Source: Alphaproteobacteria bacterium (GTDB lineage: Bacteria; Pseudomonadota; Alphaproteobacteria; Paracaedibacterales; VGCI01). Taken from it: DNA of 64,000 nt. Position 1 is the stretch's first letter. Each line of letters begins with the position of its first letter. The notes under the pieces are model-generated. The model worked only from the letters and a program-made list of their open reading frames with translations. It made no database searches and was not told the origin of the DNA. The position numbers and the translations under genes are program-made. The DNA is taken from assembly GCA_016869075.1 (NCBI GenBank), contig VGEY01000001.1, forward strand, positions 64,926 through 128,925. Direction: 5' to 3'. Below are positions 6,621 to 49,619 of the stretch, in pieces.

Positions 6621-7208
6621 ATGGCAAAACTTTATTTTTATTACGCAGCAATGAATGCAGGGAAAACGACGACACTTCTTCAATCAAGCTATAACTATTG
6701 TGAACGCGGAATGGATACATTGTTGTTTACACCAATTATAGACGATCGCTATGGAGAGGGTAAAATTGCTTCACGTATAGGTCTTGCCAACGATGCCATT
6801 CCATTTGATCGTTCCTTTAACTTTTTTGATTATATTTCCAAAGTTCAAAAGGAAATGCCTAAGCTTCGATGTATTCTTATTGATGAAGCTCAATTTATGA
6901 CCAAAGATCAAGTTTTGCAATCAGCAGAAGTGGTCGACCACCTTAAACTCCCTGTTTTAACTTATGGTTTGCGAACAGATTTCCTTGGTGAAACCTTTGA
7001 AGGAAGCCGGTATCTTCTCTCCTGGGCAGAAGAGCTTATCGAAATCAAAACGATTTGTCATTGCGGAAGTAAAGCAACCATGAATGCGCGTATTGATGAA
7101 AAAGGGAAAATCGTACGTCAGGGTGAACAAATCGAAATTGGGGGCAATGACCGCTACATTGCCCTCTGTCGTAAACATTTTATTTCCGGAACCGTAGGCG
7201 CCGAGTAA
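6621..7208 (+). CDS. tdk: thymidine kinase
   Basis: P-loop MNAGKTT, LIDEAQF, and the C-terminal Zn site CHCGSKA...ALCRKH. Confidence 0.93.
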
Positions 7209-7288
7209 GTCTATCTCTTCAACCTCTTGCCAATCTGTAAATTTTACGCTTACGATTGAGTATGAGGTTCTATTATGAAGAGAGGGTC

Positions 7289-8788
7289 ATGGGCTTCCAA
7301 CAGGTCTTATCCAACTTAAAGCTCGACCAATATATTACACCTTCGGGAACGCTTCGTGTCCGCTCTCCCCTTGATGGAGAAGAAATCGCACGCATCGGAG
7401 GTACACCTCTCGATCAAGTCGAAAAAATTATCCATCAATCACAGAATGCCTTCTTAAAATGGCGAACCATACCAGCTCCCAAGCGGGGTGAACTTGTCAG
7501 ACTTTTTGGCATAGAACTCCGCACCCATAAGGAAGACTTAGCTCATCTTATAACTTTAGAATGTGGAAAGATTTTGGAAGAAAGTCGCGGTGAAGTCCAA
7601 GAAATGATTGATATGTGTGACTTTGCTGCCGGCTTATCGCGACAGCTTTATGGCCTTACTATTACGTCTGAGCGACCTTTACACCGCATGATGGAAACAT
7701 GGCACCCGTTAGGCATTGTAGGAATTATCAGTCCTTTTAATTTTCCCGCAGCCGTTTGGTCATGGAACGCATGTTTAAGTCTCATCTGTGGAAATAGCCT
7801 TCTTTGGAAGCCATCTGAAAAAACGCCCCTTACTGCACTCGCCTGTCAAAGATTACTGAATCAAGCTATCCATCATTTTGAAGCTGCTCCAGAGCATCTG
7901 CAGCAGCTTCTTTTGGGAAATCATGTTATGGGTGAGAAATTAGTGGACGATTCACGCATCTCCCTTATCAGCGCAACCGGCAGTACGCGCATGGGGAAAA
8001 CCGTTGCACCAAAAGTTGCTAGTCGATTTGGGCGAAGTCTCCTAGAACTTGGAGGAAATAATGGCATGATTGTTGCTCCAAGCGCTGATTTAAATTTAGC
8101 GGCTCAAGCCATCGTCTTTAGCGCAGCAGGAACGACTGGGCAGCGCTGCACAACGCTGCGCCGGATTTTTATTCATGATTCTATTTATGTACAACTTATA
8201 CAGGATCTAAAAAAACGTTATAAAGATCTCCCTATAGGACATCCGCTAAAAGATAGAACTCTTCTTGGACCACTCATTGATGCCTCTTCTTTTCAATCCA
8301 TGCAGGATGCTCTCAAAAAAGCTCATCAAGACGGAGGGATTGTTTTTGGAGGAAAAAGAATATTAGAAGATAAGTACCCACAAGCATATTATGTAGAGCC
8401 CGCTCTTGTGGAAATGCCTGAACAAACTTCAACAGTTCGCTCAGAAACCTTTGCGCCTATTTTATATGCAATGCGTTATTCAAATTTTGAAGAAGCTATC
8501 TCACTTCATAACGATGTTGCTCAAGGTCTATCATCTTGCATTTTTACATCAGATATTCGGGAAGCTGAGATATTTTTATCGGCAAGGGGCAGCGACTGTG
8601 GTATTGCCAATGTGAATATTGGACCAAGTGGAGCAGAAATTGGGGGAGCATTTGGAGGCGATAAGGAAACCGGTGGCGGACGAGAATCTGGCTCTGATTC
8701 TTGGAAAACGTATATGCGCCGTGCCACCAATACAATTAATTTTTCATCCCAATTACCCCTCGCACAAGGAATAAAATTTGATGCATAA
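7289..8788 (+). CDS. aldehyde dehydrogenase, ALDH7/antiquitin type (probable alpha-aminoadipic/piperideine-6-carboxylate semialdehyde dehydrogenase)
   Basis: [59 protein letters not shown] and GQRCTTLRR motifs. The track ORF begins at TTG 7256. ATG 7289 (MGFQQV) fits the usual length of the family better. Confidence 0.82.
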
Positions 8789-10014
8789 TGCTAGCTATAA
8801 GTGAAGTACCCCCAATGACAGACTCTCATCCACATCATCCATCCGCATTCCCTTGGCAAGACATTCTTCTTCTTGAAGAACAACTCGAGCCACAAGAGCG
8901 CCTCATTCGTGATTCTGCTTATGCATATTGCCAAGAAAAATTAATGCCCAGAATTCTTGAAGCAAATCGCAAGGAACATTTTGATCGCACTATATTATCA
9001 GAAATGGGGCAAATGGGATTTTTAGGTGCAACACTGTCTCCTGAACAAGGCGGATCTGGCGCTGGATATGTAAGCTATGGTCTCATTGCTCGTGAAGTTG
9101 AACGTGTTGATTCAAGTTACCGTTCAGCAATGAGTGTTCAATCCTCTCTGACTATTTTCCCCATTGCGGCATATGGATCAGAAGAGATGTGTCGTAAGTA
9201 TTTGCCTGATCTTATTTCTGGGATAAAAGTTGGATGCTTTGGTTTAACAGAACCAGATTCCGGCTCAGATCCAGGAAGCATGCGCACAACGGCACGTAAA
9301 GTAGACGGTGGTTATCTCTTAACCGGCACAAAAACCTGGATTACAAATTCTCCCATCGCAGATATCATGATAGTATGGGCAAAAACCGAAGATAATGTTA
9401 TCAAAGGTTTTCTTGTTGAGCGAAATACAAAAGGCGTATCCACCCCTAAAATAGACGGTAAATTTAGTTTAAGGGCTTCTCTTACGGGCATGATAGTTCT
9501 TGAAGATGCCTTTGTCCCTGCAGAAAATATGTTCCCAAACGTAAGCGGACTCAAAGGCCCATTTGGGTGCTTAAATAATGCCCGCTATGGTATCGCCTGG
9601 GGAACCTTAGGAGCAGCAGAATTTTGTTGGCACGCTGCGCGTCAATATACTCTTGATCGTAAGCAATTCGGGCGCCCTCTGGCTTCTATGCAATTAATCC
9701 AGCTAAAACTTGCTGACATGCAAACGGAAATTACCCTTGGCCTGCAGGCTTGTCTTCGCGTGGGTCGCTTAAAAAATCAGGGGCTAATAGCTGCCGAAGC
9801 TACCTCTCTCATTAAGAGAAATTCATGTGGGAAGGCTCTTGAAATTGCAAGAACTGCCAGAGACATGCATGGCGGTAATGGAATTGTGGACGAATATCAT
9901 GTTATTCGTCATGTTATGAACTTAGAGGCCGTGAATACTTATGAGGGAACTCACGATATTCATGCTCTTATTTTAGGACGTGCACAAACAGGTATTTCAG
10001 CATTTGGAGAATAA
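8788..10014 (+). CDS. gcdH: glutaryl-CoA dehydrogenase (acyl-CoA dehydrogenase family)
   Basis: [13 protein letters not shown]...[15 protein letters not shown]-terminus, [14 protein letters not shown], and [14 protein letters not shown]. The start overlaps the upstream stop (TAATG). Confidence 0.82.
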
Positions 10015-10066
10015 CCCCCTTCAAATCCTTTCATATCTTTGAAAAGACTGCTATACTTGTCTTATA

Positions 10067-12313
10067 ATGAAAAGAAATACATACCTTACGCACGATACTT
10101 TACGCAAAAGCATTTTAGAACTTTTGGCAAGTAGCGAATCACCTCTTACAAAAAATCAAATTGCACGCCATTTAGGCATTCGAGGAGATAATCGCATCAT
10201 TTTAAAACAAGTTTTAGCTCAATTAGAGACTGAGGGTAATCTCGAACGTGGTTCACGCCGCAGGCTCATTCCTGCAACTCTTTCCTTTGCTGCAGGCCAT
10301 GTCTTAGTTGTTGAGATTATTGAAATAGGCGAAGATGCGCAATTAATTGCCATTCCTCTCGATTGGACTGCCGAGACACCTGCACCGAAAATTGAGCTAT
10401 TACCGTCTCGTCGAACACATACAAAACATAGTCTCTTAGGAGTTGGCGCTCACGTCCTCGTTCGCCTTCAAACCCACACAAAAGATCTTTGGCATGGTGA
10501 AGTTCTCAAGAAGTTAGAGAAAAAAGCAAAGACCCACTTAGGTATCTTTACACACTCCCGTGATGGAGGAGGCCGCCTATCACCTTGCCATCGCAAAGAT
10601 ACATTTCCTGGTGTCAAACTTTTACCTGCTGAAGCAAAAGGCCTTCTAGAAGGAGATATTGTTGCGTACTCTGTTTCCACAGCTTATGGACCCAAGATTC
10701 ATAATAAAATAGGCCGCATTGATAACCCAAAAAGTTTCAGTCAAATTGCAATATATGCACACCACATTCCTCATACTTTTTCTAAGGAAGCTATCCTTTT
10801 AAGTGAACAAGGAAAAGTTCCTTCTTTGGGACAACGTACTGATTTTACAAAAATTCCTCTTGTTACGATTGATGGTGAGGATGCACGAGACTTTGATGAT
10901 GCCGTTTGGGCATGCGCTGACAATGATCCACGTAACAAGGGGGGTTGGCGTATTCTTGTCGCAATAGCCGATGTTGCTTATTATGTCCGCCCGGGAGATG
11001 CATTGGATCATGCAGCAAAAGAAAGAGGAAACTCTGTTTATTTCCCCGACTGCGTTGTCCCCATGCTGCCCGAGGCTTTATCAAATGATTTATGTTCTCT
11101 TAAACCGAATGTGAACCGCGCCTGTATGGCCATTGAAATGATTGTTTCATCTGAAGGAAAAGTAAAATCGCACCATGTCAAACGTGGCCTCATGTGTTCG
11201 AGAGCACGATTAACCTATGCTCAAGTTCAAAAGGCGCTTGATGGTTATGTTGATGAGGTTACCGGTCCTTTACTTGAAACAGTGATCAAACCACTTTATG
11301 GTGCCTATAAATCTCTGGCAAAGGAACGAGCTCGTCGCGGTACTCTTGATATTGAACAACAAGAAAGAAAAGTTATTTTTGGTTCAAATGGTCATATTGA
11401 GCGTATTATTCCTGCTCCTCGCTATGAAAGTCATCGGCTCATTGAAGAATTCATGATTGCAGCAAATGTTGCCGCTGCTCGAACACTCCTTATAAAAAAA
11501 TGGCCATGTCTTTACCGTATTCATGATGCACCAGATGCATTGCGCATTGTAAATCTTCGTCAGATTTTACGCAAAATGAAACTTACTTTCACAAAAGCGA
11601 AAAAACCACATCCCCGACAATTTAATGAAGTTCTGACTAAGACAAAAGGGACCCCTGTTGCCCAAATGATATCTGATCTTGTTTTACGCTCTCAAGCACA
11701 AGCACGCTATAGTCCTTTAAATATCGGACACTTTGGCTTAAACCTAACTCATTACGCCCACTTTACCTCCCCCATCCGGCGTTACTCTGACCTTATTGTC
11801 CATCGTTCTCTCATATCTGCATTACAACTTGGTGATGACGGATTGACTGACAGGTCAGCGCATTTAACTGCACTGGCAGATCATATTTCTGCAACCGAAC
11901 GAACCGCTGCTGTTGCCGAAAGAGAGGTTCAAGATCGATTTATAATTGCCTATCACCTCCCCCACATTGGTAAAGTATTTCCGGCAACAATTGTTGGTGT
12001 AACCAAGAATGGGATCTTTGCCGCCATTTCTGATACCGGAGCGCAAGGTTTCATTCCTCGTCATCTTTTAAGAGGGGATGTTTTTCACTATGATGAAGGT
12101 AATCACAGGCTTCTAGGTCGACGCACTCAAACATCTTATCAACTGGGCAGTCCCATAGAAGTACGTCTCCAATCAGCTGACATATCAACCAACAGTCTTC
12201 TTTTTGAATTAGTAGATAATTTTGAATTTGCAAAACAACCCCATGTTGGGCATAAAAAGAATACATCAAACAAGCAACTAAAAAAATTTAAAAAGTCATG
12301 GCGCAAGAGATGA
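10067..12313 (+). CDS. rnr: ribonuclease R
   Basis: RNB catalytic motifs (IDGEDARDFDDAV, YFPDCVVPMLPE, HFGLNLTHYAHFTSPIRRYSDLIVHR), a C-terminal S1-like domain and a Lys-rich tail. Confidence 0.9.
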   Translation: MKRNTYLTHDTLRKSILELLASSESPLTKNQIARHLGIRGDNRIILKQVLAQLETEGNLERGSRRRLIPATLSFAAGHVLVVEIIEIGEDAQLIAIPLDWTAETPAPKIELLPSRRTHTKHSLLGVGAHVLVRLQTHTKDLWHGEVLKKLEKKAKTHLGIFTHSRDGGGRLSPCHRKDTFPGVKLLPAEAKGLLEGDIVAYSVSTAYGPKIHNKIGRIDNPKSFSQIAIYAHHIPHTFSKEAILLSEQGKVPSLGQRTDFTKIPLVTIDGEDARDFDDAVWACADNDPRNKGGWRILVAIADVAYYVRPGDALDHAAKERGNSVYFPDCVVPMLPEALSNDLCSLKPNVNRACMAIEMIVSSEGKVKSHHVKRGLMCSRARLTYAQVQKALDGYVDEVTGPLLETVIKPLYGAYKSLAKERARRGTLDIEQQERKVIFGSNGHIERIIPAPRYESHRLIEEFMIAANVAAARTLLIKKWPCLYRIHDAPDALRIVNLRQILRKMKLTFTKAKKPHPRQFNEVLTKTKGTPVAQMISDLVLRSQAQARYSPLNIGHFGLNLTHYAHFTSPIRRYSDLIVHRSLISALQLGDDGLTDRSAHLTALADHISATERTAAVAEREVQDRFIIAYHLPHIGKVFPATIVGVTKNGIFAAISDTGAQGFIPRHLLRGDVFHYDEGNHRLLGRRTQTSYQLGSPIEVRLQSADISTNSLLFELVDNFEFAKQPHVGHKKNTSNKQLKKFKKSWRKR

Positions 12314-39009: not shown

Positions 39010-39546
39010 TCATAGAGGCCCCCTTTCGACTAAAGCAGCTACCGCCTGATCCTTTTCTTTGCTGCCTCTTGAGGATCCAAACTCAAACGTATAGGCATCT
39101 TTCAGGCATGCACCAAAAATGCCTGCAATAGTTGAAATAATCCCAATGGCTTCTCCTGGAAGAGATTCGGAGTAGAAACTCAAAGATAATAAACACAGCA
39201 CTAGACCAACAGCAGCTGCAATAACCATGACGTCAGCCCGAACGTTTGATCGTCCTGCATTTATAATGGCAATATCCCTTAATCGTGCATCCTGTCGATC
39301 TTTCATAACTGCAAGTTCAATTTCCGCTTCCACTTGAATAATGGCTTTTTGAAATTCGCTCACCATACCTGAATTTTCTTGCAAACGCTGGATAGCTTCT
39401 ACTGGATCAAGTGTTCCAGTAATTTTTTGCGCAATATCGACAACTTTTGCAGCAACATCTTGTGCATGTTCTCCCCCAAGCCATCGAGCTATGATGGGGG
39501 CAAATCCAGCCAAACCTAAAGCAGCTGCGATTATGGGAAATGCCAT
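39010..39546 (-). CDS. holin, 3-TM GTA-release type (GTA_holin_3TM-like)
   Basis: Hydrophobic N-terminus MAFPIIAAALGLAGFAPII. Central segment RDIAIINAGRSNVRAD followed by TM segments. C-terminal FEFGSSRGSKEK motif that I associate with this family. Last gene after the hydrolase. Confidence 0.6.
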   Translation of the reverse strand: MAFPIIAAALGLAGFAPIIARWLGGEHAQDVAAKVVDIAQKITGTLDPVEAIQRLQENSGMVSEFQKAIIQVEAEIELAVMKDRQDARLRDIAIINAGRSNVRADVMVIAAAVGLVLCLLSLSFYSESLPGEAIGIISTIAGIFGACLKDAYTFEFGSSRGSKEKDQAVAALVERGPL

Positions 39547-39547
39547 C

Positions 39548-39979
39548 TTAGTCTCCTATTCCTAATTGATAAAATAAATGATTTGCTATACGAACCTTAG
39601 GTGTCCGCCCCCTTGCCCACGGAGGATAAACCTTTAATTTTGCAGCATGGTAGTGGTCACTCCCTTTTGTTAAATCTGGCCATTGTTGTTCGATTACTTT
39701 TAAGGCAACTTCCTGACAGATCTGAAAAATTGGATCCTCAATATACTTTTGTAAAAGAATGTGGCGGTTGGGATCTCCTTCATTCCAACAAGAAAACTGG
39801 GCGGGCTTATGGCAAATTTCTTTTATTGATTTTCCAAACCAATTTTGAATTTTGTATCGATTCATAACCACATTACCAACAGCAATTAATGAAGCGAGAC
39901 CTCCTTCACTATGAAAGTATTCTCCACGCGCCTCACCATAAATTGTGCGTGCCAAGATTTGAACAGTATCAAAATTCAT
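39548..39979 (-). CDS. cell wall hydrolase, SleB/Hydrolase_2 family (probable endolysin)
   Basis: LARTIYGEARGE...VGNVVMNRYK...ICHKPAQFSCWN...HYHA is the typical SleB-type cell wall hydrolase pattern. Confidence 0.8.
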   Translation of the reverse strand: MNFDTVQILARTIYGEARGEYFHSEGGLASLIAVGNVVMNRYKIQNWFGKSIKEICHKPAQFSCWNEGDPNRHILLQKYIEDPIFQICQEVALKVIEQQWPDLTKGSDHYHAAKLKVYPPWARGRTPKVRIANHLFYQLGIGD

Positions 39980-40356
39980 TTTTGTATTTCCGGAATTTCT
40001 AACAAAAGTGCCCAGTTTTTTTGATCTTTATCAAACTCAGACGATGTATGAGAAAGTATGCAACTGTACAAATGTTGCTTTATCTGGACCCAATCAAGAA
40101 CACGATAAGACGTTTGAGGCTGCCAATGGCCGCGTGGTGTTGGTATTGCTTTCGGTAGTGTAATTTTTCCCAAAATATTTCCAAAAGTCCCTTGAATTGT
40201 TAATTGATCTCCGTCTTGAATAATTTCCGCAATCCCCTCAGCTACTGGTGGCGTTGATTCTAAACTTTTAAGACGCTTTTCGAGTGTTAGGAAATTCCCA
40301 TCCATTTCTTCTATGGTCAGTGGTTCATTTTTTTGATGGCGATAGATAATTCCCAT
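39976..40356 (-). CDS. small phage tail-fibre-like protein with a possible CBM5/12-like C-terminus
   Basis: The N-terminus PLTIEEMDGNFLTLEKRLKSLE resembles tail-fibre N-termini. The C-terminus W-x5-Y-x5-W-V-x6-Y-x-C-x3-H-x10-W resembles the aromatic spacing of small carbohydrate-binding modules. Both are pattern-level only. Confidence 0.4.
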   Translation of the reverse strand: MGIIYRHQKNEPLTIEEMDGNFLTLEKRLKSLESTPPVAEGIAEIIQDGDQLTIQGTFGNILGKITLPKAIPTPRGHWQPQTSYRVLDWVQIKQHLYSCILSHTSSEFDKDQKNWALLLEIPEIQK

Positions 40357-40361
40357 ATTTT

Positions 40362-41159
40362 TTATTTCCCCCTTTTATAAAATAAATATCCATTTGCTAA
40401 GCGATAGGAAGAATAAGGAATTTTTAAATTCTCACCATTTTCATCCACGCCAAGTTTAAGATAAATTACAGACATTCCCGCTTCGAGTGATTCTCTAAGT
40501 GTTCGTTGTTCATCTGGTTGCCAAGTATCTTGAAAAAGTATCTCCGGTGACGACACTAACCCCTGCTCACGCCAATTAAGAAGTGAGGTTGGCAGTATGA
40601 TTGTTTCATCTCTCAGTGTGTCTAATGTAAAAACAAAGGGCTGAATATCATCTTCTACTTGTAGACCGCCAAATGCCCAAAGCACATGCTCGCTCCTCGT
40701 TCCTTTGTCTTGTAGGTGCCAGGAAATGGCGCGCCCTTCAGGCTGTACACAAAATGTTTTTACATAAAGATGGGGCCCAGGTAACTCCAGAACATAATCA
40801 GAAAATTGGACACCAAGGAAAGGAATATTTTCTTGCCCAGAAATTTTTTGATAATTTCCAGTTCCTTGAAACGTTACTCTTACATGCGAAAAAACATTCC
40901 GCGCGCTATACACCTGACAGTAAGTGCTCCTATCAAACTTTGCAGTAGCTGTTCTGTTCTCAAGCCAAATAGGAGTGAGATGAACATGAAGCTCTATAAC
41001 AGAAGGGAACATCTGCTCGACGAGCCAGCTGCCAGCATCCTTTACTCCTCCAAATTGGCAATGAGGATCTTCTCCATTAAAACTATCAGTTGCAAGTGCT
41101 GCATATCCAACTGGATAAGGTTTAAGCGTCGCACTTCGTAAGCCACGATCAAATCTCAT
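40362..41159 (-). CDS. phage-cluster protein of unknown function (265 aa from ATG 41159)
   Basis: ATG 41159 overlaps the upstream TGA (ATGA), indicating translational coupling. No family recognised. Confidence 0.5.
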   Translation of the reverse strand: MRFDRGLRSATLKPYPVGYAALATDSFNGEDPHCQFGGVKDAGSWLVEQMFPSVIELHVHLTPIWLENRTATAKFDRSTYCQVYSARNVFSHVRVTFQGTGNYQKISGQENIPFLGVQFSDYVLELPGPHLYVKTFCVQPEGRAISWHLQDKGTRSEHVLWAFGGLQVEDDIQPFVFTLDTLRDETIILPTSLLNWREQGLVSSPEILFQDTWQPDEQRTLRESLEAGMSVIYLKLGVDENGENLKIPYSSYRLANGYLFYKRGK

Positions 41160-42856
41160 AGATGAACTTCTCCTGCTAAATCTACCTGCTTTGGTGCTGT
41201 CCATTCTCGAAGAATTTCTAGATTGATGGTATGTTCAAGAACACTTCGACCTTTTAAACTCTTCAAATCAAGTGAGATGACGGTTGGAACCTCTTCCAAT
41301 GCACCCCTTAAATTTTGGCGAATGGGATATTGCTGGCTTTGTAAAAAACTAATTTGCTTTTCAGCATCATGGCTTACGAAAACTTCACGCAAAATGTCAT
41401 GTGCTTCCAATGCCTCCAAACCTAAAATGCCTTCTTTTGTTTTTTGCTGAGAATAATTTTCATAGAATAATCCAGATGCAGTTGCATAAAAATGAGGAAA
41501 GGTTGTATCTCCATAAGCTGAGTCAGCATATAATGTTTGTTTTAACTCAGGTAAAGGATCAGTTTTAGTGCCGATTGAAGCCACAAATCGAAGCCACGCA
41601 TAAGATTTTACTCCATCCTGATAGAGTTTATATGCGATAGCTTTTCCTGAAATCGCGCCTCCTGGAATGCGCTCATCTTTGAGTTGAATTGTATGATCCA
41701 TTGTCAAACCAATCCCCTCGTTGAATGGCATTGTAATTTCAACTTCAAGGCAGCGTGCGCTAGCAGCCAGGTGCGCACGAGCTATTTCCAAAGCATGTTC
41801 AACTGTCTGTCTTCCACGACGTGTTAAGAAAAAAGTACTTGTGGCTTCATGATGACCTGAGAGTGCTTCTACTTGCTGCAGTCGTAGATTTAGGACACGC
41901 CTTAATGGCCGAATTGTTCCGTCAAGTTGTGTTTTATGTTTAAGTGTGAATTGAACAATTTCTCGTCTCTTCTGACGATAGCGCCATCCAAGAACAAGAG
42001 TGCCAAACAACCAAACACGACGCCCACGTTCTAACTTTGCCGTCTGAGTGGTATCATCCCAAATCTTTAATTCAGGTGTAAGTGTGGGATATAAATTTAA
42101 TATGCCTGTTTTAGGTGGTTGGATGCGTTTTAATTGGCTTTTGACAACCCAAAATCCTGATCTTCCGATTTTCATGCCTTCCTTGGGCCACGTTGCTTCT
42201 AATGCCTGAGGTGTGAGGGTGTTGATAATTCCACCCGGAAATGCTGACGAAATTTTTGTGCCAAGACTGAGCTCCACTTCTGCCTTCTGAGTCCATTCAG
42301 CTGTTAAGATGACAGATATTTGTGCAAGAGGTGTTTCTGCCAAACTTACTTTTAAACTGTCTGAAAAAAATACATTTGTTAAATCAAGAACATGACGACC
42401 TTGAAATAAATCCGTCACGTAAACCACTCCGCTTACTCGATCCCATGCAAACAAGGCTGTACGCCCCTCTAGCCATTCAGAGGGATTCTGGTATTCTGTA
42501 TGTTCCACAAAAGCAGAATCCCAATAAGGAGCTTGTTTTAAGTCAGCTTCAATTGCTTGAAGTTGTTCAAGAGCATTTATTGGTTCAGCTGTTAACTCTA
42601 AACTGATCACATTATTTTTAATTTTTATAGGAAGGCCAAGAAGTCGACCGGAAAAAATTAATTCATCCCCTACCGAGATATAGACGTGTCGCTGCTCCAA
42701 GGGGGGTACCTTTATTTGTGCAACAATAACTGTAGCTAATGCCACTTCCCCCTCTCTATGATCAATGGACAATTCTAAAATATCTAAATCACAGCGGGCA
42801 TGAACTCTCGGATCATAGCGCTCTGTTTCTTTGCGCCACGCAAAATATGTTAACAT
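41156..42856 (-). CDS. phage-cluster protein of unknown function (566 aa), candidate tail or baseplate component
   Basis: First gene of the second transcription unit, with GGAG ~10 nt upstream. It is the largest ORF of the cluster. Its position is analogous to the distal-tail or hub genes of siphovirus and GTA clusters. No motif recognised. Confidence 0.5.
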   Translation of the reverse strand: MLTYFAWRKETERYDPRVHARCDLDILELSIDHREGEVALATVIVAQIKVPPLEQRHVYISVGDELIFSGRLLGLPIKIKNNVISLELTAEPINALEQLQAIEADLKQAPYWDSAFVEHTEYQNPSEWLEGRTALFAWDRVSGVVYVTDLFQGRHVLDLTNVFFSDSLKVSLAETPLAQISVILTAEWTQKAEVELSLGTKISSAFPGGIINTLTPQALEATWPKEGMKIGRSGFWVVKSQLKRIQPPKTGILNLYPTLTPELKIWDDTTQTAKLERGRRVWLFGTLVLGWRYRQKRREIVQFTLKHKTQLDGTIRPLRRVLNLRLQQVEALSGHHEATSTFFLTRRGRQTVEHALEIARAHLAASARCLEVEITMPFNEGIGLTMDHTIQLKDERIPGGAISGKAIAYKLYQDGVKSYAWLRFVASIGTKTDPLPELKQTLYADSAYGDTTFPHFYATASGLFYENYSQQKTKEGILGLEALEAHDILREVFVSHDAEKQISFLQSQQYPIRQNLRGALEEVPTVISLDLKSLKGRSVLEHTINLEILREWTAPKQVDLAGEVHL

Positions 42857-42892
42857 CTCTTAAAACTCCAAACGTCGTTTCTCAAATGAATT

Positions 42893-42922
42893 TATGGGCA
42901 AAATAACTTCTCATATGGGCAA
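42893..42922. promoter_or_regulatory. 9-bp direct repeat TATGGGCAA x2, spaced 21 bp, in the divergent intergenic region
   Basis: Copies at 42893-42901 and 42914-42922, between the 566-aa operon start (42856) and the EamA start (42975). Confidence 0.25.
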
Positions 42923-42974
42923 TTATTTCTTTTTTCTCGACTTTCTAACAAAATCCTTGTAAAAAGATAATTTA

Positions 42975-43982
42975 TTGAAATCATTCAAAGTAACATATAA
43001 GGCTATGACTAAGATTCGAACCTCTTCTCTCGCCCAGACGGATGAAAGTATTCAAGAAATGTTGCCTCAGCCTCTTTCAACAAATCCTTTTTCTTGGTTT
43101 ATGCGTAAAGGGTACCCCCAAGGAGCTTTTTGGGCTGTTATGATAACACTTGTGAGTGTTATCAATGATATTTTAATGCGCCTATTGGGTGCAGGCCTTG
43201 ATGTCATTCAAATTTTCTTTTTCAGATTTTTCTTCGGCATGTTATCTGTTATCCCTCTCATGCTATCTCATGGTTCTATTTTGTTTAAAACTTCCAGACC
43301 TTGGATGCACTTCTGGCGTGCTCTCTTAGGTGTGGGAGCTATTGGTGGTGCTTGTTATTCCGTAAATTTGTTACCTTTATCTGACAACACTATTATTATG
43401 TCCTCTCAACCCTTCTTTTTCCTCCCATTAGCGGTTCTTTTCTTACGTGAAAAAGTTGATTTAACCCGTTGGATTGCTATCCTTATTGGCTTCATAGGCC
43501 TTCTTATTATGTTTCAGCCAGGCGCAGAGTCCTTACGCATTGTTGCCCTTGTTCCCATTATCGCCGCACTCCTTTTTGCAATGAGTGATGTTGTAGCTAA
43601 AAAAATGGTTGTTACAGAAAGTACTCAATGCATGTTGTTTTACTTTGCGGTAGGTACGACTCTAATTACACTTATCCCAGCCATCCTCGTTTGGAAAACT
43701 CCATCTTGGTACGAATTGGGAATGCTTGCACTTCTAGGAATCGGCGGAAATTTAATCCAAGTCTGTATGATTCGCGCCTTTTCAGCAACGGAGGCCTCTG
43801 CCTTAAGTCCATTCCGATATGTTGAATTCATTTTTTCAGCATTGTTTGGTTTCCTACTATTTGCTGAAGTTCCAACACTTGTAACCCTTATTGGTGCAGC
43901 CTTTATTATCGCTGGAACTGCTTACATTAGTTATTACGAAGCTTTAAAAGAACACAAAAAAAACTTAAAGTTTAACTTATAG
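42975..43982 (+). CDS. EamA/DMT-superfamily transporter
   Basis: Ten predicted TM helices in a duplicated EamA arrangement. The start is TTG 42975 or ATG 43005. Confidence 0.85.
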   Translation: MKSFKVTYKAMTKIRTSSLAQTDESIQEMLPQPLSTNPFSWFMRKGYPQGAFWAVMITLVSVINDILMRLLGAGLDVIQIFFFRFFFGMLSVIPLMLSHGSILFKTSRPWMHFWRALLGVGAIGGACYSVNLLPLSDNTIIMSSQPFFFLPLAVLFLREKVDLTRWIAILIGFIGLLIMFQPGAESLRIVALVPIIAALLFAMSDVVAKKMVVTESTQCMLFYFAVGTTLITLIPAILVWKTPSWYELGMLALLGIGGNLIQVCMIRAFSATEASALSPFRYVEFIFSALFGFLLFAEVPTLVTLIGAAFIIAGTAYISYYEALKEHKKNLKFNL

Positions 43983-43987
43983 TTGCT

Positions 43988-44491
43988 TTAAATCTCTTCG
44001 AGTTCTAGTTTCCATCCAGCCTTTAGACCCCACTCATTTGTTGTAAGAGTAAATACGATTACACGCATGTTAAGCCATGGTCGATAACTCAAAAAAATGA
44101 CTTCATCCCGTTTTTTATTAATAGCTACTTTTCTTCCTGACACCTCCTTAATCTCAATATTTTTTCTATCTTGAGTAACAGCAAAAAGTGAACCCTCAAT
44201 TGGATCTCGCTCTAAATGTGCCTCTTGACCACTCACCTTTTGCCATAAGCGTTGAATACAACCTACGCGTACTTCGCTTCCACGCCAAAACCCCTCTAAA
44301 GCCAAAGACGCCTTATCTTCACAAGAAATAATAGAGCGATATTTATGCCCACTTTCTTTTCCCACATAAATGAGGGACCCATTGATGGTACGTCGTAAAA
44401 GTCCCGATTCAATAGGAATAAGGTTTTGTATGCATCCGCGTGCTGAAAGAGGAGGAAACCCTCCCCGGCTTAATATAAGTTCAGACTCCAT
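43988..44491 (-). CDS. phage-cluster protein of unknown function (167 aa) in the position of a major tail protein
   Basis: Last gene of the head-neck unit. It does not resemble the TP901-1/RcGTA g9-type tail proteins as I recall them. Confidence 0.45.
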   Translation of the reverse strand: MESELILSRGGFPPLSARGCIQNLIPIESGLLRRTINGSLIYVGKESGHKYRSIISCEDKASLALEGFWRGSEVRVGCIQRLWQKVSGQEAHLERDPIEGSLFAVTQDRKNIEIKEVSGRKVAINKKRDEVIFLSYRPWLNMRVIVFTLTTNEWGLKAGWKLELEEI

Positions 44492-44661: not shown

Positions 44662-45084
44662 TTAACCTCTTACAAGTGAATCATAAAAATGATAAACGGC
44701 TTTGACTGGCTGATGACCAAACACCTTTCCAGAAGGTTCCGTGACACATCCTAAAAAACGAACTGTTGCTGTCTTATCTGCTGATAATTTTTCAGACAAC
44801 CACAGTGTTGCACCTTCTAATACTTCTCTTACTTTGCTTGATAACGAGGCAGCTTCTTCCATGCCAGGACTATGAGAATAAATACCAACTTTGAATTTTA
44901 CGCGTGTCTGCATATTCATTCCGAGCATATTTGTATCCATTACATACGGAGACCAGACCTCTTCCAACTCAATCAAAATAAGGGGGTAAAGTGCATTTGG
45001 AGGAATTGCAAGATGTATTCTCTGAGATGAATCAGCATTTAAGAGACGCTCTCTTACTGCAGTAATAATTTGAAAATCACTCAC
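44662..45084 (-). CDS. DUF3168-like neck / tail-completion protein
   Basis: Size, position after the head-tail adaptor, and the N-terminal pattern ...VRERL...IPPNALYPLILIELEEV. Confidence 0.65.
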   Translation of the reverse strand: MSDFQIITAVRERLLNADSSQRIHLAIPPNALYPLILIELEEVWSPYVMDTNMLGMNMQTRVKFKVGIYSHSPGMEEAASLSSKVREVLEGATLWLSEKLSADKTATVRFLGCVTEPSGKVFGHQPVKAVYHFYDSLVRG

Positions 45085-45412
45085 CTTCCTCTCCCACCTT
45101 ATACATTAAACAAGTCATCCATTGCCTCGTCTCATCTATTAAAGGTGGACAAAGTAATGCCAAAATAATTTCATCCCACTTTATGCGTGCAAATTTCATT
45201 CTATGATATCGCATAGTTACCTTATATTTTGTTTGAGGTGGCGCAACATTATTCCAATTTTCTCCATAGGACTCTTGACCTATAAAGCAAACTATTTTTG
45301 CCCAAACATAATTTATTTGCTGCCAATTCTCTTTAAAGGAACCATCTTTTTCTTCAACAATGTGCCTGCGCAAAAGAATGATACGGTCTTTTAGTTCTTG
45401 AATACGTGTCAT
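45077..45412 (-). CDS. phage head-tail adaptor / head-closure protein
   Basis: 111 aa. ELKDRIILLR...DGSFKENWQQINYVWAKI is the typical head-closure pattern. Overlaps both neighbouring genes. Confidence 0.72.
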   Translation of the reverse strand: MTRIQELKDRIILLRRHIVEEKDGSFKENWQQINYVWAKIVCFIGQESYGENWNNVAPPQTKYKVTMRYHRMKFARIKWDEIILALLCPPLIDETRQWMTCLMYKVGEEGE

Positions 45413-45984
45413 GGCAACCTCAAAGTTCGATACGTATCTAAAATCTCACGGACCAAAGAATTATGAACCAGAGATGCAGGATTTTGAAGTGAACTCCGAT
45501 GTTCATAAAAATCTGCAATACAGATTAATATTGCCTGTCGAAGAACAGAAGGTATATCATTTGGCCTATCTCCATATCCACTTTCATATTCAATTTCCAC
45601 CGGCTCTGATACATCTGCAAAAACAAGTCTTGGCACTTGATGATTTAATTCGAGACGATGACGCCGAATGGGTTGTTTTTCTCCTGTTGGCATTAGGCGA
45701 TTCACAGATAAAATTGAACGTAAAGGTGGATACGGTAATGGAACGGAGCAAACATCCATTTCTTCGGTTGATATGAGAGGTGGATAGGCTTTCTGTTTTT
45801 CCCAAATGAGTCTCCAAACTTGTGTTAAAAGAGATCTTCCAAGATATTCCTCCACAAAGCTAGCTGAAGCTTGTATCAAAGGGTGTAAATATTCATCTTC
45901 ATGGGCGTGGTCAAGGCGCAAATGCGCCTTGACCTCAGAAATACCTACAGGAAGAACTTCTAGCACTTTAATGCGTATCAACAT
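45409..45984 (-). CDS. gp6-like head-tail connector protein
   Basis: EVKAHLRLDHAHEDEYLHPLIQASASFVEEYLGRSL is the characteristic N-terminal motif of this family. Confidence 0.72.
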   Translation of the reverse strand: MLIRIKVLEVLPVGISEVKAHLRLDHAHEDEYLHPLIQASASFVEEYLGRSLLTQVWRLIWEKQKAYPPLISTEEMDVCSVPLPYPPLRSILSVNRLMPTGEKQPIRRHRLELNHQVPRLVFADVSEPVEIEYESGYGDRPNDIPSVLRQAILICIADFYEHRSSLQNPASLVHNSLVREILDTYRTLRLP

Positions 45985-45987
45985 GTG

Positions 45988-47172
45988 TTATTCCTTCACA
46001 AAATGAATGAACTTCAGGGCATCGAAGTTGACGACATCACCTCCCACTCGCTTTGTTGCATAAAATTCCACATAAGGCTTAGTACTAAACGGATCGCGTA
46101 AAACATGCAGCCCAGCGCGATCTACAATCTGATAAGCTTGTTTAAAATTTCCAAATGCTATTGAAGTAGAAGGCTCATTGATGTCCAAGGCTGGCATTTC
46201 ATCTGCAATGAATACCGGATATCCAAGTAAGGACGCAGGGGTGTTTTCACTTATGTTGGGCTGCCATAAATAATGTCGATTACCATCTTTCAATTTTCTT
46301 ATTGCAGCCAAAGCAGAACGTGACATTACCCAGGTAGCACCATTTAAATAATGAGCTTTTAAGGCATGAAAAATGTCTAACAAGATGTCTCCATCTGTTA
46401 ATCCGTTACGAGACTGAAATGCCTCGATTTTCCCCCATTCTCCTTTGCCAACTTGTACTTTCTCATATGTGAGAAAGCCCTTTGGTTTCCCATTTCCATC
46501 TCCGTTAATAAACGCTGTATTTTCTGTGAGAATCATTTTTTCTGCAATTTTTTCCGCTAGCCAAGATTCAATATCAACACTTGAGTCATCGAGTAACTTT
46601 TGGCTTGCCCGGGGTTTTGCATAAATTTGATGAACAGGTATGCGAATTTTCTGAAGCTCTGGAGTTCTTGTTTCAGGTCTGTCAGCTGTTTCAGCAACCC
46701 ACCCTACATCTGCAGTACCCTTTTCAATAAGCAATTCTAAAGCATCTGTTGAAATACTTGTTATACGCGAAAGAGATCGCATAGGAGAAGCAACTGACAT
46801 TGTAGAATGAATTTTATCTAACATACCGTGTGGAATTAAATATCCTCCACTTGCATCATTCAAACTGGACAAGGCTTTTTGCTCAAACCCTTCTTCCCCT
46901 TTGCGTATGTATGCAAAAAATGCGCCTTTTTCACCGCTCTCTTGTTCATTTGAATTCGCAATGTAGGGCTTTCGTAAAGCTATCTCTAAATGACTCAATC
47001 GCTTTTGCGCCTTATCAACCTCATCATTTAAATGGTTTACTTTTTCTTCAACCAATGGATCAATTACGCCTTTCTTTTCCAATTCCACAAGACGTTGATC
47101 ATTGGCTGCTTTGAACTCTTGAAAGGCACATTGGAGCGTATCAATTGCTTCTCGTATAAGCTGTGTTGTCAT
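45988..47172 (-). CDS. phage major capsid protein, HK97 family (with N-terminal delta/scaffold domain)
   Basis: Coiled-coil N-terminus (KAANDQRLVELEKKG...VNHLNDEVDKAQKR), then the HK97-fold body (GGYLIP..., NGDGNGKPKGFL, AIRKLKDGNRHYLWQP, PVFIADEMP). Confidence 0.9.
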   Translation of the reverse strand: MTTQLIREAIDTLQCAFQEFKAANDQRLVELEKKGVIDPLVEEKVNHLNDEVDKAQKRLSHLEIALRKPYIANSNEQESGEKGAFFAYIRKGEEGFEQKALSSLNDASGGYLIPHGMLDKIHSTMSVASPMRSLSRITSISTDALELLIEKGTADVGWVAETADRPETRTPELQKIRIPVHQIYAKPRASQKLLDDSSVDIESWLAEKIAEKMILTENTAFINGDGNGKPKGFLTYEKVQVGKGEWGKIEAFQSRNGLTDGDILLDIFHALKAHYLNGATWVMSRSALAAIRKLKDGNRHYLWQPNISENTPASLLGYPVFIADEMPALDINEPSTSIAFGNFKQAYQIVDRAGLHVLRDPFSTKPYVEFYATKRVGGDVVNFDALKFIHFVKE

Positions 47173-47230: not shown

Positions 47231-47794
47231 TTATAAAGGCTTTTTCTCCTCCGTTTCTTTAAGAATTCTCTCACATTGATATAACCGATCTATGAGCGCC
47301 ACAATTTCAGGATCAATCATTTTAACCTGATTAACTTTGGCCTTTGGATTTGCAGCAAATGTGACTAAAGAAATTTCATGTAATGTCACTTCTTCTAGCA
47401 CCCGTATGTGTGGTATACCTGCGCGACCTTCAACGCGTCTTGCGCGTACGGTTGAAAATCCAATTGACAGGCCATCAATAATGCCATTTTTCAAAAGGCT
47501 GTAAGCTTCACGTCCTTGTGAAAGTTCTAAAAGCAATTGACCTTTAACAAATAGCCCATGGGCGTCTTCCTGAATTTCTTGCCAAATTCCTATAGGGTAA
47601 CGATAGTCATGTTGCCATAATAGTTTGGGCATCTTCCCTTGCTGCACCCAAGATTTTAAAGAAAGATCAAATGCGCCTGAGGCAACTTCTTCTCCTTGTG
47701 AATCAAGAACTCCGAACACAGAAGCATATCCATTAAAAACGCCTTCTGAATCACAATTTTTTAATGAAAGTGGGCAACTACGAATTTTTTTCAT
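47231..47794 (-). CDS. HK97-family prohead protease
   Basis: GVFNGYASVFGVLDSQGEEVASGAF...LLWQHD...DGLSIGF...LHEISLVTFAANPKA. ATG 47794 has AAGGA upstream and overlaps the portal 3' end by 17 nt. Confidence 0.88.
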   Translation of the reverse strand: MKKIRSCPLSLKNCDSEGVFNGYASVFGVLDSQGEEVASGAFDLSLKSWVQQGKMPKLLWQHDYRYPIGIWQEIQEDAHGLFVKGQLLLELSQGREAYSLLKNGIIDGLSIGFSTVRARRVEGRAGIPHIRVLEEVTLHEISLVTFAANPKAKVNQVKMIDPEIVALIDRLYQCERILKETEEKKPL

Positions 47795-49022
47795 GGTTTT
47801 TTCCTTGGGTAAAATTAGGGTTAAGAGGTATTGAAAGAACATCACCATCAACAATGGGACCATATCCCACTGCATGACGCTTTTCGTTTATGGTTAAAAA
47901 ATCTGCTGCTGTAATTTTTGACCAAACAGCTTCTCGTCGAGATGTAAGAGCAGGTATTGCATCAATGTTATAGCTAAGACATAAATTTTCTTCGAAAGCT
48001 GGCACCAACCAAAGATTAAATTCGGCTACAAGAAATTCTAGAAGAGGAAGAATTGTATCTTCCCACAAATGAAAGCGCGCTTCTTTATAGTTGGCAAAGG
48101 TCGCATCGCCGGGAACTCCTACAAGCATGGGAGGAACACCATAGGCTTGTGCAATTTCACGGGAAGATAAATTTTTACCTTCAATAAAATCTAAATCTTT
48201 GGGAGATAATCCCATCTCGCGCCAATCACAATCTCCTTCCAATATTATAATCTGTCCAGCATTTTTCTGACCCGAATAAATTTCCCGTAAATCACTGCGC
48301 AAAGAATCACGCTGCTCTTCACTCATCCCGCGCGAATGAGGTGTTGGGCGAACAATTAAGCCTCCACTTGGTCTTCCTCCATTTTGTAAAAGGGCTAAAT
48401 TGTGTCCCGCAACAGCGTTATGCTGATCAATGCTTTGCGCTGCTGCCTCAATGGGACTCATGCCATACCAATCATTTAATGGGTGAAAATTTTTTAAATG
48501 AAGAAGTGTTGAATAACCTGTTATAGGATCACAGGTATAAATTTTACGTTGCCCTGAAACATTATATTCATAGCCCGCAGGAATTCCCGTCGCGCTTGGA
48601 ATAATTTTTATGCGATCTGGTCGTAATGAGTGTAACTCAATAGGACTTCCCTCCTCATTGATGACAGATTCAATATATGTATTACCTGAAAGAAGAAGGT
48701 ACCCCACCACAGATTCCATAAAAGCAGATCCTGCTTGACGGGGACTTGGAGAATTCAACAAAGTGAGCAGAGGATGGCTTTCAATTTCTGTTGACCCACG
48801 ATACAAAAGCCAAGGAACACTGCTCAGTCCCCGAGCGATGAGGTTAACGCACCGGTAAACAATGACATTTTTTTGATATCCTTCTGCAGCAAGAGAATCA
48901 TAGCGACGCGGAGTCCAAATAGGATTTCCAACTGTGCCATATGCTGCAAGAGGAGCAACCGCGCTTCTTTTGGTTGCGCTGTTCCGCCATGGAAAAAGAA
49001 AAGTTTTGAGAGAGTCTTTCAT
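47778..49022 (-). CDS. phage portal protein, HK97 family
   Basis: 414 aa. YRCVNLIARGLSSVPWLLY, the FHPLNDWYGMSPIEAA pattern, and its position directly before the protease and capsid genes. AGGTGG lies 8 nt upstream of the ATG. Confidence 0.9.
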   Translation of the reverse strand: MKDSLKTFLFPWRNSATKRSAVAPLAAYGTVGNPIWTPRRYDSLAAEGYQKNVIVYRCVNLIARGLSSVPWLLYRGSTEIESHPLLTLLNSPSPRQAGSAFMESVVGYLLLSGNTYIESVINEEGSPIELHSLRPDRIKIIPSATGIPAGYEYNVSGQRKIYTCDPITGYSTLLHLKNFHPLNDWYGMSPIEAAAQSIDQHNAVAGHNLALLQNGGRPSGGLIVRPTPHSRGMSEEQRDSLRSDLREIYSGQKNAGQIIILEGDCDWREMGLSPKDLDFIEGKNLSSREIAQAYGVPPMLVGVPGDATFANYKEARFHLWEDTILPLLEFLVAEFNLWLVPAFEENLCLSYNIDAIPALTSRREAVWSKITAADFLTINEKRHAVGYGPIVDGDVLSIPLNPNFTQGKNHEKNS

Positions 49023-49166: not shown

Positions 49167-49619
49167 TTACTTACACTTTAATTTTCCATCTCCCTGACCT
49201 CTTTTTAGAGGTTGAATATTTCCCAATTGTTCAGGTTGGAGACCAGCACTCACAAATTCGTTGGCCAATTTACTTTGTTGCCCTTTCAAGCCTTCTAACT
49301 GCATAGCTAATAAGGCAGGATTGTTTGGATTTTTCATATCAATTTTTGCCTTAGGATCAATGCTGGCTTTCTTTGACATTATTTCACCGATTTTATCTTT
49401 ATTGCCTGCATAGAGTTTCACGTCGTTACAAAAGCCTTCTCCTTCACCTTTTGCACGATTCTTAACACACTCTTCAAGCTTCTCGATATTTATTCCGCAG
49501 CTTGAAGAAGAATCCAGCACACCTTCCGGAACTTCTTGTCCCTTATATGTATGTGATTCAGCAAAGCTGGCTGATATTCCTAAGACGGCTACTGCAGCCA
49601 TGATTGATAAATGTTTCAT
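49167..49619 (-). CDS. exported hypothetical protein (150 aa)
   Basis: Leader MKHLSIMAAVAVLGISASFA|ES. Lys- and Gly-rich. No family recognised. Confidence 0.55.
   Translation of the reverse strand: MKHLSIMAAVAVLGISASFAESHTYKGQEVPEGVLDSSSSCGINIEKLEECVKNRAKGEGEGFCNDVKLYAGNKDKIGEIMSKKASIDPKAKIDMKNPNNPALLAMQLEGLKGQQSKLANEFVSAGLQPEQLGNIQPLKRGQGDGKLKCK

Follow-up and report, generated by a model that had tools for sequence, protein, structure and literature searches.

Here, we describe a cluster of phage-derived genes in a 64,000-nucleotide stretch of DNA from an Alphaproteobacteria metagenome-assembled genome (MAG) (GenBank assembly GCA_016869075.1, contig VGEY01000001.1, positions 64,926 to 128,925 of the forward strand), with a focus on three open reading frames (ORFs) named p566, p265 and p126 after their lengths in amino acids. 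The whole stretch is called the window, and coordinates given without a locus number (L001 and so on) refer to it. All three ORFs are real and lie on the minus strand, where they fill the span 39976-42856 as an earlier note on this DNA had read them: p566 (566 aa, 42856-41156) is a baseplate hub or tail-tip protein with a predicted fold of the gp27/Mu gp44/Tal type, p265 (265 aa, 41159-40362) is an orphan of the tail-tip operon specific to Holosporales, and p126 (126 aa, 40356-39976) appears from alignment to be a truncated tail fibre, composed of an N-terminal anchoring module and a CBM5/12-like motif (CBM, carbohydrate-binding module). A fourth protein, p167 (167 aa, 43988..44491, minus strand), is the invariable partner of the hub and occupies the position of a distal tail (Dit) protein. 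Between p167 and p566 lie a plus-strand gene for an EamA-family transporter (42975..43982; Pfam EamA E=1.4e-26) and, between the EamA and p566 genes, a divergent intergenic region of 118 bp (42857-42974). Upstream, the cluster encodes a head of the type found in RcGTA, the gene transfer agent (GTA) of Rhodobacter capsulatus. We consider it probable that the three ORFs and p167 together form the tail-tip module of a fixed, GTA-like element of Holosporales with an RcGTA-type head.

The three ORFs are tightly arranged. A GGAG sequence is found about 10 nt upstream of the p566 ATG, the start ATG of p265 at 41159 overlaps the p566 stop as ATGA, and p126 begins 5 nt past the p265 stop with its own AAGGGGG Shine-Dalgarno sequence. 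A longer, 280-aa reading of the second ORF (from 41204) was ruled out, as all homologs begin MRFDRGLR. The p126 stop in turn overlaps, again as ATGA, the start of a gene for a 143-aa SleB-type cell-wall hydrolase (39548..39979, minus strand; Pfam Hydrolase_2 E=4e-17; PHROG endolysin E=1e-17), and only 1 nt downstream of the hydrolase gene is that of the 178-aa membrane protein p178 (39010..39546, minus strand; E=2.6e-20 to phrog_1544, a family of unknown function), so the unit does run straight into this pair, as had been noted. With hydrophobic segments at residues 1-23 and 100-129, p178 is a putative holin. The translational coupling proposed for all three ORFs is strict at the two junctions with ATGA overlaps (566 to 265 and 126 to hydrolase), whereas the 265 to 126 junction is tight but has no overlap. 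Similarly, the unit has the Shine-Dalgarno sequence and the upstream region that the earlier note assigned to it, but the 118-bp region is shared with the EamA gene, and a promoter scan found promoter-like sites there at a level not above shuffled expectation, including a single weak minus-strand match of the sigma-70 type (42951-42922). This divergent region would carry the promoter of the p566-p178 unit, and the EamA gene would thus split the element into two transcription units.

Structure prediction places p566 among known tail hubs. The AlphaFold2 model, built on a 26-sequence alignment, has a mean pLDDT of 88.6 and a pTM of 0.78, and Foldseek comparison with the PDB yielded 42 matches at E<=1e-3, with probability 1.0 and E values down to 5e-10. 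The top 50 PDB fold matches are all central hubs or spikes, from both contractile and non-contractile tail-like machines. Matches in the PDB include the PVC, AFP and CIS spikes, the pyocin R2 hub, VgrG, T4 gp27, Mu gp44 and the MuSo2 43-kDa tail protein (TM 0.52-0.57 on the target for the last two), and further 80alpha Tal, T5 pb3 and the tips of mycobacteriophages Bxb1 and Douge. Against the viral predicted structures of BFVD, the model matches siphovirus entries named 'tail protein' or 'minor tail protein' and proteins of the Mu gpP and P2 gpD types. At the level of sequence, p566 has no Pfam, PHROG or PDB match, either as a single sequence or as a 26-sequence profile, and six of its phage homologs have no Pfam or PHROG hit. 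With the window's hub and two viral hubs as queries, tblastn returned nothing convincing from 50,697 records of cultured phages. A single-protein viral scan was also empty. The earlier note had been unable to match p566 to RcGTA g12-g15 or to common Dit, Tal or J proteins, which holds for the sequence but not for the fold; the Foldseek check returned an ordinary hub, an outcome that the note had itself listed as refuting.

The p566 family extends well beyond the window. A word-indexed search recovered 55 homologs, and a profile search recovered 1,496 cluster representatives at E<=1e-3, 926 of them at E<=1e-30; the window's own p566 has no annotation beyond 'hypothetical' in its Alphaproteobacteria MAG. 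Large and so far unannotated, this family of hubs is common among uncultured siphophages. Compared to known hubs, p566 has an extra C-terminal region of about 135 aa, and in some family members a CBM5/12 insert or, at the C-terminus, an RCC1 propeller is present; both are typical receptor-binding decorations. The sole disordered loop of the p566 model, residues 333-337, is the exact site of a CBM5/12-like insert of about 50 aa in the hubs of other Holosporales lineages (L003, L005, L018, L020 and L022); in the window's clade, the CBM5/12-like motif is present only in p126. On the strength of the model, p566 is a single-chain baseplate hub of the gp27/Mu gp44/Tal type, and we propose that it would act as a trimer closing the distal end of the tail channel.

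Distant homologs of p566 (25-30% identity) are found in siphophage contigs, for example metagenomic L001 and L004 and 24 contigs from IMG/VR. Read from contigs that reach far enough on each side, the gene order in these phages is a probable tube gene and chaperones, a tape measure of about 500-1030 aa, a p167-like protein, the hub, a protein of about 150 aa, a second protein of about 200-330 aa (498 aa in one contig), and a fibre, which is 530-999 aa long in most contigs. The best viral match to p566 is the hub of L029 (E=5e-61), and the capsid and adaptor of this phage also resemble those of the window. Four genes lie in L029 between the member of the Tail_completion_gp17 family and the p167 homolog, encoding a 257-aa probable tube, two chaperone-sized proteins and a 587-aa tape measure, the last with only a weak, sub-threshold match to PhageMin_Tail.

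These phages also place p167. By BLASTP, p167 shares 28% identity (E=2e-18) with a 174-aa protein encoded between the tape measure and the hub in L001, and hits of the p167-family hidden Markov model (HMM) in phage contigs have E values of 1e-24 to 1e-78. The family, including its members in phages, is 143-184 aa in length, and a p167 homolog adjoins the hub on its upstream side in every viral locus where both genes are called. No Pfam, PHROG or PDB hit was obtained for p167 by sequence or by profile. Since p167 is homologous to the small protein that follows the tape measure, it holds the Dit position, and we propose it as a candidate distal-tail ring protein. The earlier suggestion that the 167-aa protein belongs with the three ORFs is thereby supported, and the hub fold of p566, the fibre homology of p126 and the gene order of the phage relatives agree with its placement of the three ORFs in the tail-tip position.

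The fibre homology of p126 was detected with phmmer, which aligns its residues ~10-110 with residues ~19-115 of fibres of 530-999 aa (E 1e-7 to 6e-13) that are encoded downstream of the hub in viral contigs; one of these, in L035, matches PHROG tail-fibre families. The alignment is colinear through PLT..E.D.NF..L..R and W..Y..D.V....Y.C..H.S..F, and p126 is therefore best read as a fibre reduced to its N-terminal module. It stops at residue 126, with no extended shaft or distal receptor-binding domain, and its few longer relatives have 171-193 aa, or 526 aa in L024. The second of the two colinear blocks is the CBM5/12-like motif. Against Pfam CBM_5_12 (PF02839), p126 itself scores E=1.7e-4 and 22 bits, below the cut-off of 26.2, and among 20 aligned sequences (13 p126 homologs and 7 phage-fibre N-termini) nine match the family at E<=0.01, with a best E of 2.8e-8. 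Thus, both features pointed out earlier, a fibre-like N-terminus and a C-terminal likeness to CBM5/12, are borne out, the first by alignment to phage fibres and the second by the wider family despite its sub-threshold score in p126; as a part of an adsorption device, p126 appears to be a truncated fibre, with a hub-proximal anchoring module and a small CBM5/12-like motif, rather than a complete adsorption protein. In the p126 homologs of L005, L021 and L022 an extra C-terminal motif is present (LP.Y...TLP....G.L.L......DG..W..L), and in L003 (12819-13166) the same motif stands in place of the CBM-like block.

Homologs of p265 are found in nearly all Holosporales loci and in none of the viral loci compared. 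As a single sequence and as a profile, p265 has no Pfam, PHROG or PDB match, a second, profile-based homolog search added one sequence only, and its AlphaFold2 model (pLDDT 39) is unusable. The reading of p265 as simply a diverged copy of the two phage genes between hub and fibre was rejected after jackhmmer and profile-profile comparison (hhalign) were both negative. Pattern scans of IMG/VR with p265 and with the Holosporales-type hub recovered no copy. We propose that p265 is a lineage-specific accessory, most likely a peripheral piece of the baseplate linking hub and fibre. Of the three proteins that had been labeled as having no known identity, p566 now has a predicted role as a hub and p126 as a fibre stub, and the label stays with p265.

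All 21 genome loci with a relative of p566 belong to Holosporales MAGs, assigned to Candidatus Finniella, Paracaedibacteraceae, Caedimonas and unclassified Alphaproteobacteria. The gene order in about 20 Holosporales genomes is portal, protease, capsid, adaptor, stopper, terminator, p167, EamA, p566, p265, p126, hydrolase, p178 and recG, with EamA and recG on the strand opposite to the cluster (the head-closure and terminator genes were scored where detectable). This order, including EamA and recG, is held down to 23-27% hub identity, and almost every Holosporales cluster (L003-L027) has EamA between its p167 and hub genes. Homologs of p566, p265 and p126 are intact in about 20 genomes. Ratios of nonsynonymous to synonymous substitution (dN/dS; Nei-Gojobori) were calculated for pairs with unsaturated dS, L018-L025 and L021-L025, respectively, and are 0.14 and 0.14 for p566, 0.12 and 0.11 for p265, 0.27 and 0.12 for p126, 0.28 and 0.14 for p167, 0.06 and 0.055 for the capsid, and 0.06 and 0.05 for EamA; for p178, the single pair L021-L025 gave 0.055. 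Conservation across about 20 genomes together with dN/dS of 0.11-0.27 indicates that the three ORFs are not chance reading frames, and the values show the tail-tip genes to be constrained, less strongly than the head genes. The fixation of EamA within the cluster and the constant chromosomal neighbours point to ancient domestication with vertical descent over repeated prophage insertion. Taken together, this argues for a chromosomally fixed, vertically inherited, phage-derived, GTA-like element of Holosporales.

In the place where the phage relatives have tube, chaperone and tape-measure genes, the window has 170 bp, between the terminator-like gene and p167. No tube, tape measure or terminase gene was found in the cluster or elsewhere in the 64-kb window, which has no other phage-like ORF, and no tube, chaperone or tape-measure gene was found in the cluster across about 20 related genomes, in agreement with the earlier reading that the tip would have to do without a tape measure. 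The interval between terminator and p167 is short in the Holosporales loci, except in some genomes; the longest, 3.6 kb in L010 (4878-8257), was considered as a hiding place for a tube or tape measure and rejected, because it holds five small proteins on the opposite strand that are unrelated to tail genes. Most of these five have signal-peptide-like N-termini. The simplest reading is that the block of tube, chaperones and tape measure has been deleted from an ancestral cluster of the siphophage type.

The head and neck genes all lie on the minus strand upstream of p167. They encode an RcGTA-type portal protein (47778..49022; Pfam Phage_portal E=1e-82), a prohead protease (47231..47875; Pfam Peptidase_S78 E=4e-30), whose true start is probably internal since the ORF overlaps the portal gene, an HK97-fold major capsid protein of RcGTA type (45988..47172; Pfam Phage_capsid E=2e-82), a 191-aa head-tail adaptor of the gp6 type (45409..45984; Pfam Phage_connect_1 E=9e-9; PHROG head-tail adaptor E=4e-18), a 111-aa head-closure or stopper protein (45077..45412; Pfam Phage_HCP E=2.9e-4, below the cut-off) and a 140-aa tail-completion or terminator-like protein (44662..45084; Pfam Tail_completion_gp17 E=7e-5, marginally below the cut-off). 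Neither of these last two neck proteins has a match in single-sequence PDB searches. Capsid and portal match RcGTA Rcc01687 (E=1.5e-76) and Rcc01684 (E=5e-90), respectively, far better than any phage structure. A tip like that encoded by RcGTA g12-g15 (DUF2460 Dit, DUF2163 hub, peptidase, megatron) has no Pfam hit in the window, and the p167 and p566 profiles have no PDB match at E<=10; the library searched includes the RcGTA portal and capsid, with its RcGTA baseplate chains unconfirmed. An RcGTA-type head with a tip unlike g12-g15 makes the element a mosaic, whose RcGTA-type head and neck carry a tail tip derived from a different lineage of siphophages.

Beyond the cluster, a 150-aa signal-peptide protein with no Pfam match is encoded at 49167-49619 (minus strand), between the portal and aspartate aminotransferase genes, where a phage would be expected to have its terminase. 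A tyrosine recombinase gene at 34942-35928 (plus strand; Phage_integrase and SAM_1) adjoins accA and recG and is chromosomal and XerC/D-like; we therefore rejected its reading as part of a prophage. At 25715-32046 (plus strand), in a stretch of strong positive AT skew, three tandem paralogous ORFs of 595, 725 and 730 aa share 45-55% identity, with nearly identical final ~140 residues. At least two of them have signal-peptide-like N-termini, none of the three has a Pfam match, and they could be a secreted or effector-like family.

The head part of this element has been described before. In Holosporaceae and Rickettsiales endosymbionts, a GTA head and portal are kept under purifying selection while the tail is apparently missing and the terminase is unlinked; stopper and terminator genes are present in one clade, made up of symbionts of amoebae and rhizarians, and are followed by suspected tail genes with 'no detectable similarity', and a tube was not recovered in Holosporaceae by HMM or DELTA-BLAST screening (George et al., 2022; PMC9254644). 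The element of that study and the one described here come from the same lineage and are the same, with RcGTA-type portal, protease, capsid, adaptor, stopper and terminator. The difference lies in the downstream genes, which can now be assigned (p167 to the Dit position, p566 as a gp27-type hub, p265 as an orphan, p126 as a fibre stub, and the hydrolase and p178 as a lysis pair) and which are conserved, constrained and split by a fixed EamA gene. The arrangement with its embedded EamA gene, which the earlier note did not recognize, is thus an anciently fixed Holosporales element. RcGTA is likewise a chromosomal, domesticated element with neck proteins of the same kinds, but it has a tube (g9), tape measure (g11), Dit (g12) and peptidase (g14), and hub g13 and megatron g15 each contribute a part of its gp27-like fold (Bardy et al., 2020; PMC7296036). 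The Holosporales cluster has no tube or tape measure, its predicted hub is a single chain of another family, and, unlike in RcGTA, lysis-type genes are adjacent.

Compared to the gp27, Mu gp44, P2 gpD, VgrG and Tal hubs, p566 is alike in its predicted fold and in the gene position of its phage relatives, but it lies outside the Pfam and PHROG hub families and in a cluster without tube, sheath or tape measure. SPP1 (gp19.1-gp21) and T5 (pb9-pb3) resemble the phage relatives in having a small, ring-sized protein and a large hub after the tape measure, with fibres downstream; next to siphophage Dits, p167 would be a minimal, one-domain Dit from whose cluster the nucleating tape measure is absent. 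Capsid-forming phage-inducible chromosomal islands (cf-PICIs) are chromosomal elements that encode a head and connector but no tail tube and no tail tip, and take complete tails from helper phages. The Holosporales element differs from them in encoding its own tip, in showing no sign of mobility and in its fixed synteny with recG and EamA.

A possible particle can be outlined from these genes. The two transcription units would run from portal to p167 and, from the divergent intergenic region, from p566 to p178. Heads would assemble and be closed by adaptor, stopper and terminator, and, if particles are made, a p167 ring would stack directly on the terminator ring, a plausible arrangement given that in RcGTA one fold is common to stopper, terminator, tube and Dit (Bardy et al., 2020; PMC7296036). 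A p566 trimer would cap the p167 ring and with it the channel, p265 and short p126 trimers with their sugar-binding motif would decorate the hub, and the SleB-type hydrolase and p178 would serve particle release or wall opening. Such a particle would consist of head, neck and tail tip, with essentially no tail tube. Only tentatively, we put forward that this may be a kind of particle not seen before, with a tail of zero length, in which an RcGTA-type head and neck have their terminator capped by a Dit-like ring and a gp27-type hub from a different siphophage lineage, and which endosymbionts and their free-living relatives may have kept over a very long time for DNA delivery or for another function.

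The same genes could instead encode the tip of a GTA tail of ordinary, short siphovirus type that is complete but split, with tube, chaperone, tape measure and terminase encoded elsewhere in the genome. The large terminase is indeed unlinked in Holosporaceae (George et al., 2022; PMC9254644) and absent from the window, some RcGTA accessory loci are likewise located apart, and a tube and tape measure not of RcGTA type could have escaped RcGTA-based searches just as the tip did. Assembly of Dit and hub, moreover, normally requires a tape measure. However, every sufficiently long phage relative has a tape-measure-sized gene directly upstream of its p167 homolog, where about 20 Holosporales genomes have nothing or unrelated genes; the window holds nothing tube- or tape-measure-like, and the published HMM and DELTA-BLAST screens also returned no tube in Holosporaceae (PMC9254644), which leaves a split tail unlikely in our view. 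A remnant of a decaying prophage, in which the three ORFs would be leftover tail genes with no present function, fits the missing tube, tape measure and adjacent terminase, the gene losses, and the ORFs found split in relatives (p265 in L007, p167 in L009, capsid in L027). These splits occur in MAGs and may be assembly errors, and such a remnant is very improbable given intact ORFs in an order fixed over family-level divergence (hub identity down to 23%), dN/dS of 0.11-0.28 in pairs with unsaturated dS, the fixation of a host gene within the cluster, and IMG/VR scans that recovered no copy with the Holosporales-type hub and p265 patterns.

Repurposing has also to be weighed, with hub, p265, fibre stub, hydrolase and membrane protein acting without DNA-filled heads, for example as an envelope or host-interaction device, and the head genes having another role, for example an encapsulin-like one. 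One contig, L006, retains EamA, hub, p265, hydrolase and p178 (6709-11143) with no head genes or p167 within its 18.7 kb, its head unit having been either lost or moved; the two halves of the element, divided by EamA, would be separate transcription units; and the strongest constraint in the module falls on p178 (dN/dS 0.055). Roles other than horizontal gene transfer have been proposed for endosymbiont GTAs (George et al., 2022; PMC9254644). L006, though, is one contig of one MAG, and most genomes keep the units of head, neck, p167 and hub adjacent and co-conserved. We know of no function of a gp27-type hub or a Dit-position protein outside a tail or injection apparatus, and regard such a repurposed module as rather doubtful.

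Our preferred reading, a tail-tip module within a fixed GTA-like element, also has points that weigh against it, among them the lack of nearby head genes in L006 and the rearranged cluster of L024. In L024 (7605-16752) the order is portal, adaptor, p167, hub, protease, capsid, p265 (399 aa) and fibre (526 aa), and EamA is absent. The adaptor of L024 adjoins p167, and no stopper or terminator was detected there. A p126 gene is absent in L006, L013, L015, L016 and L026, and p265 has no assignable fold and no relatives outside Holosporales. The dN/dS values come from related lineages and not from the window's genome; the comparisons available for the latter were saturated in dS. The candidacy of p167 as a Dit follows from where its gene lies and from its homology to phage genes that are themselves uncharacterised. 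A tape measure normally serves as the core around which Dit and hub assemble, and this cluster lacks one; coverage was 64 kb of this genome and 10 kb on either side of the loci in relatives, so that tube, tape measure or terminase could lie elsewhere. Particle formation in this lineage would be a prediction from the genes, and no particles were seen by transmission electron microscopy in related endosymbionts (George et al., 2022; PMC9254644).

The hub family of about 1,500 cluster representatives is newly defined and was previously unannotated, and the joining of an RcGTA-type head to a tail tip that is not of RcGTA type points to a mosaic origin of the element. For the 'tail-less' GTA clusters of Holosporales and Rickettsiales endosymbionts, George et al. 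(2022; PMC9254644) left it undecided if the tail had been lost or was just unrecognisable. A tail-tip set that has been retained under constraint, along with a lysis pair, turns the 'missing tail' of these endosymbionts into a concrete, tubeless model, in which the element may deliver DNA or serve another function.

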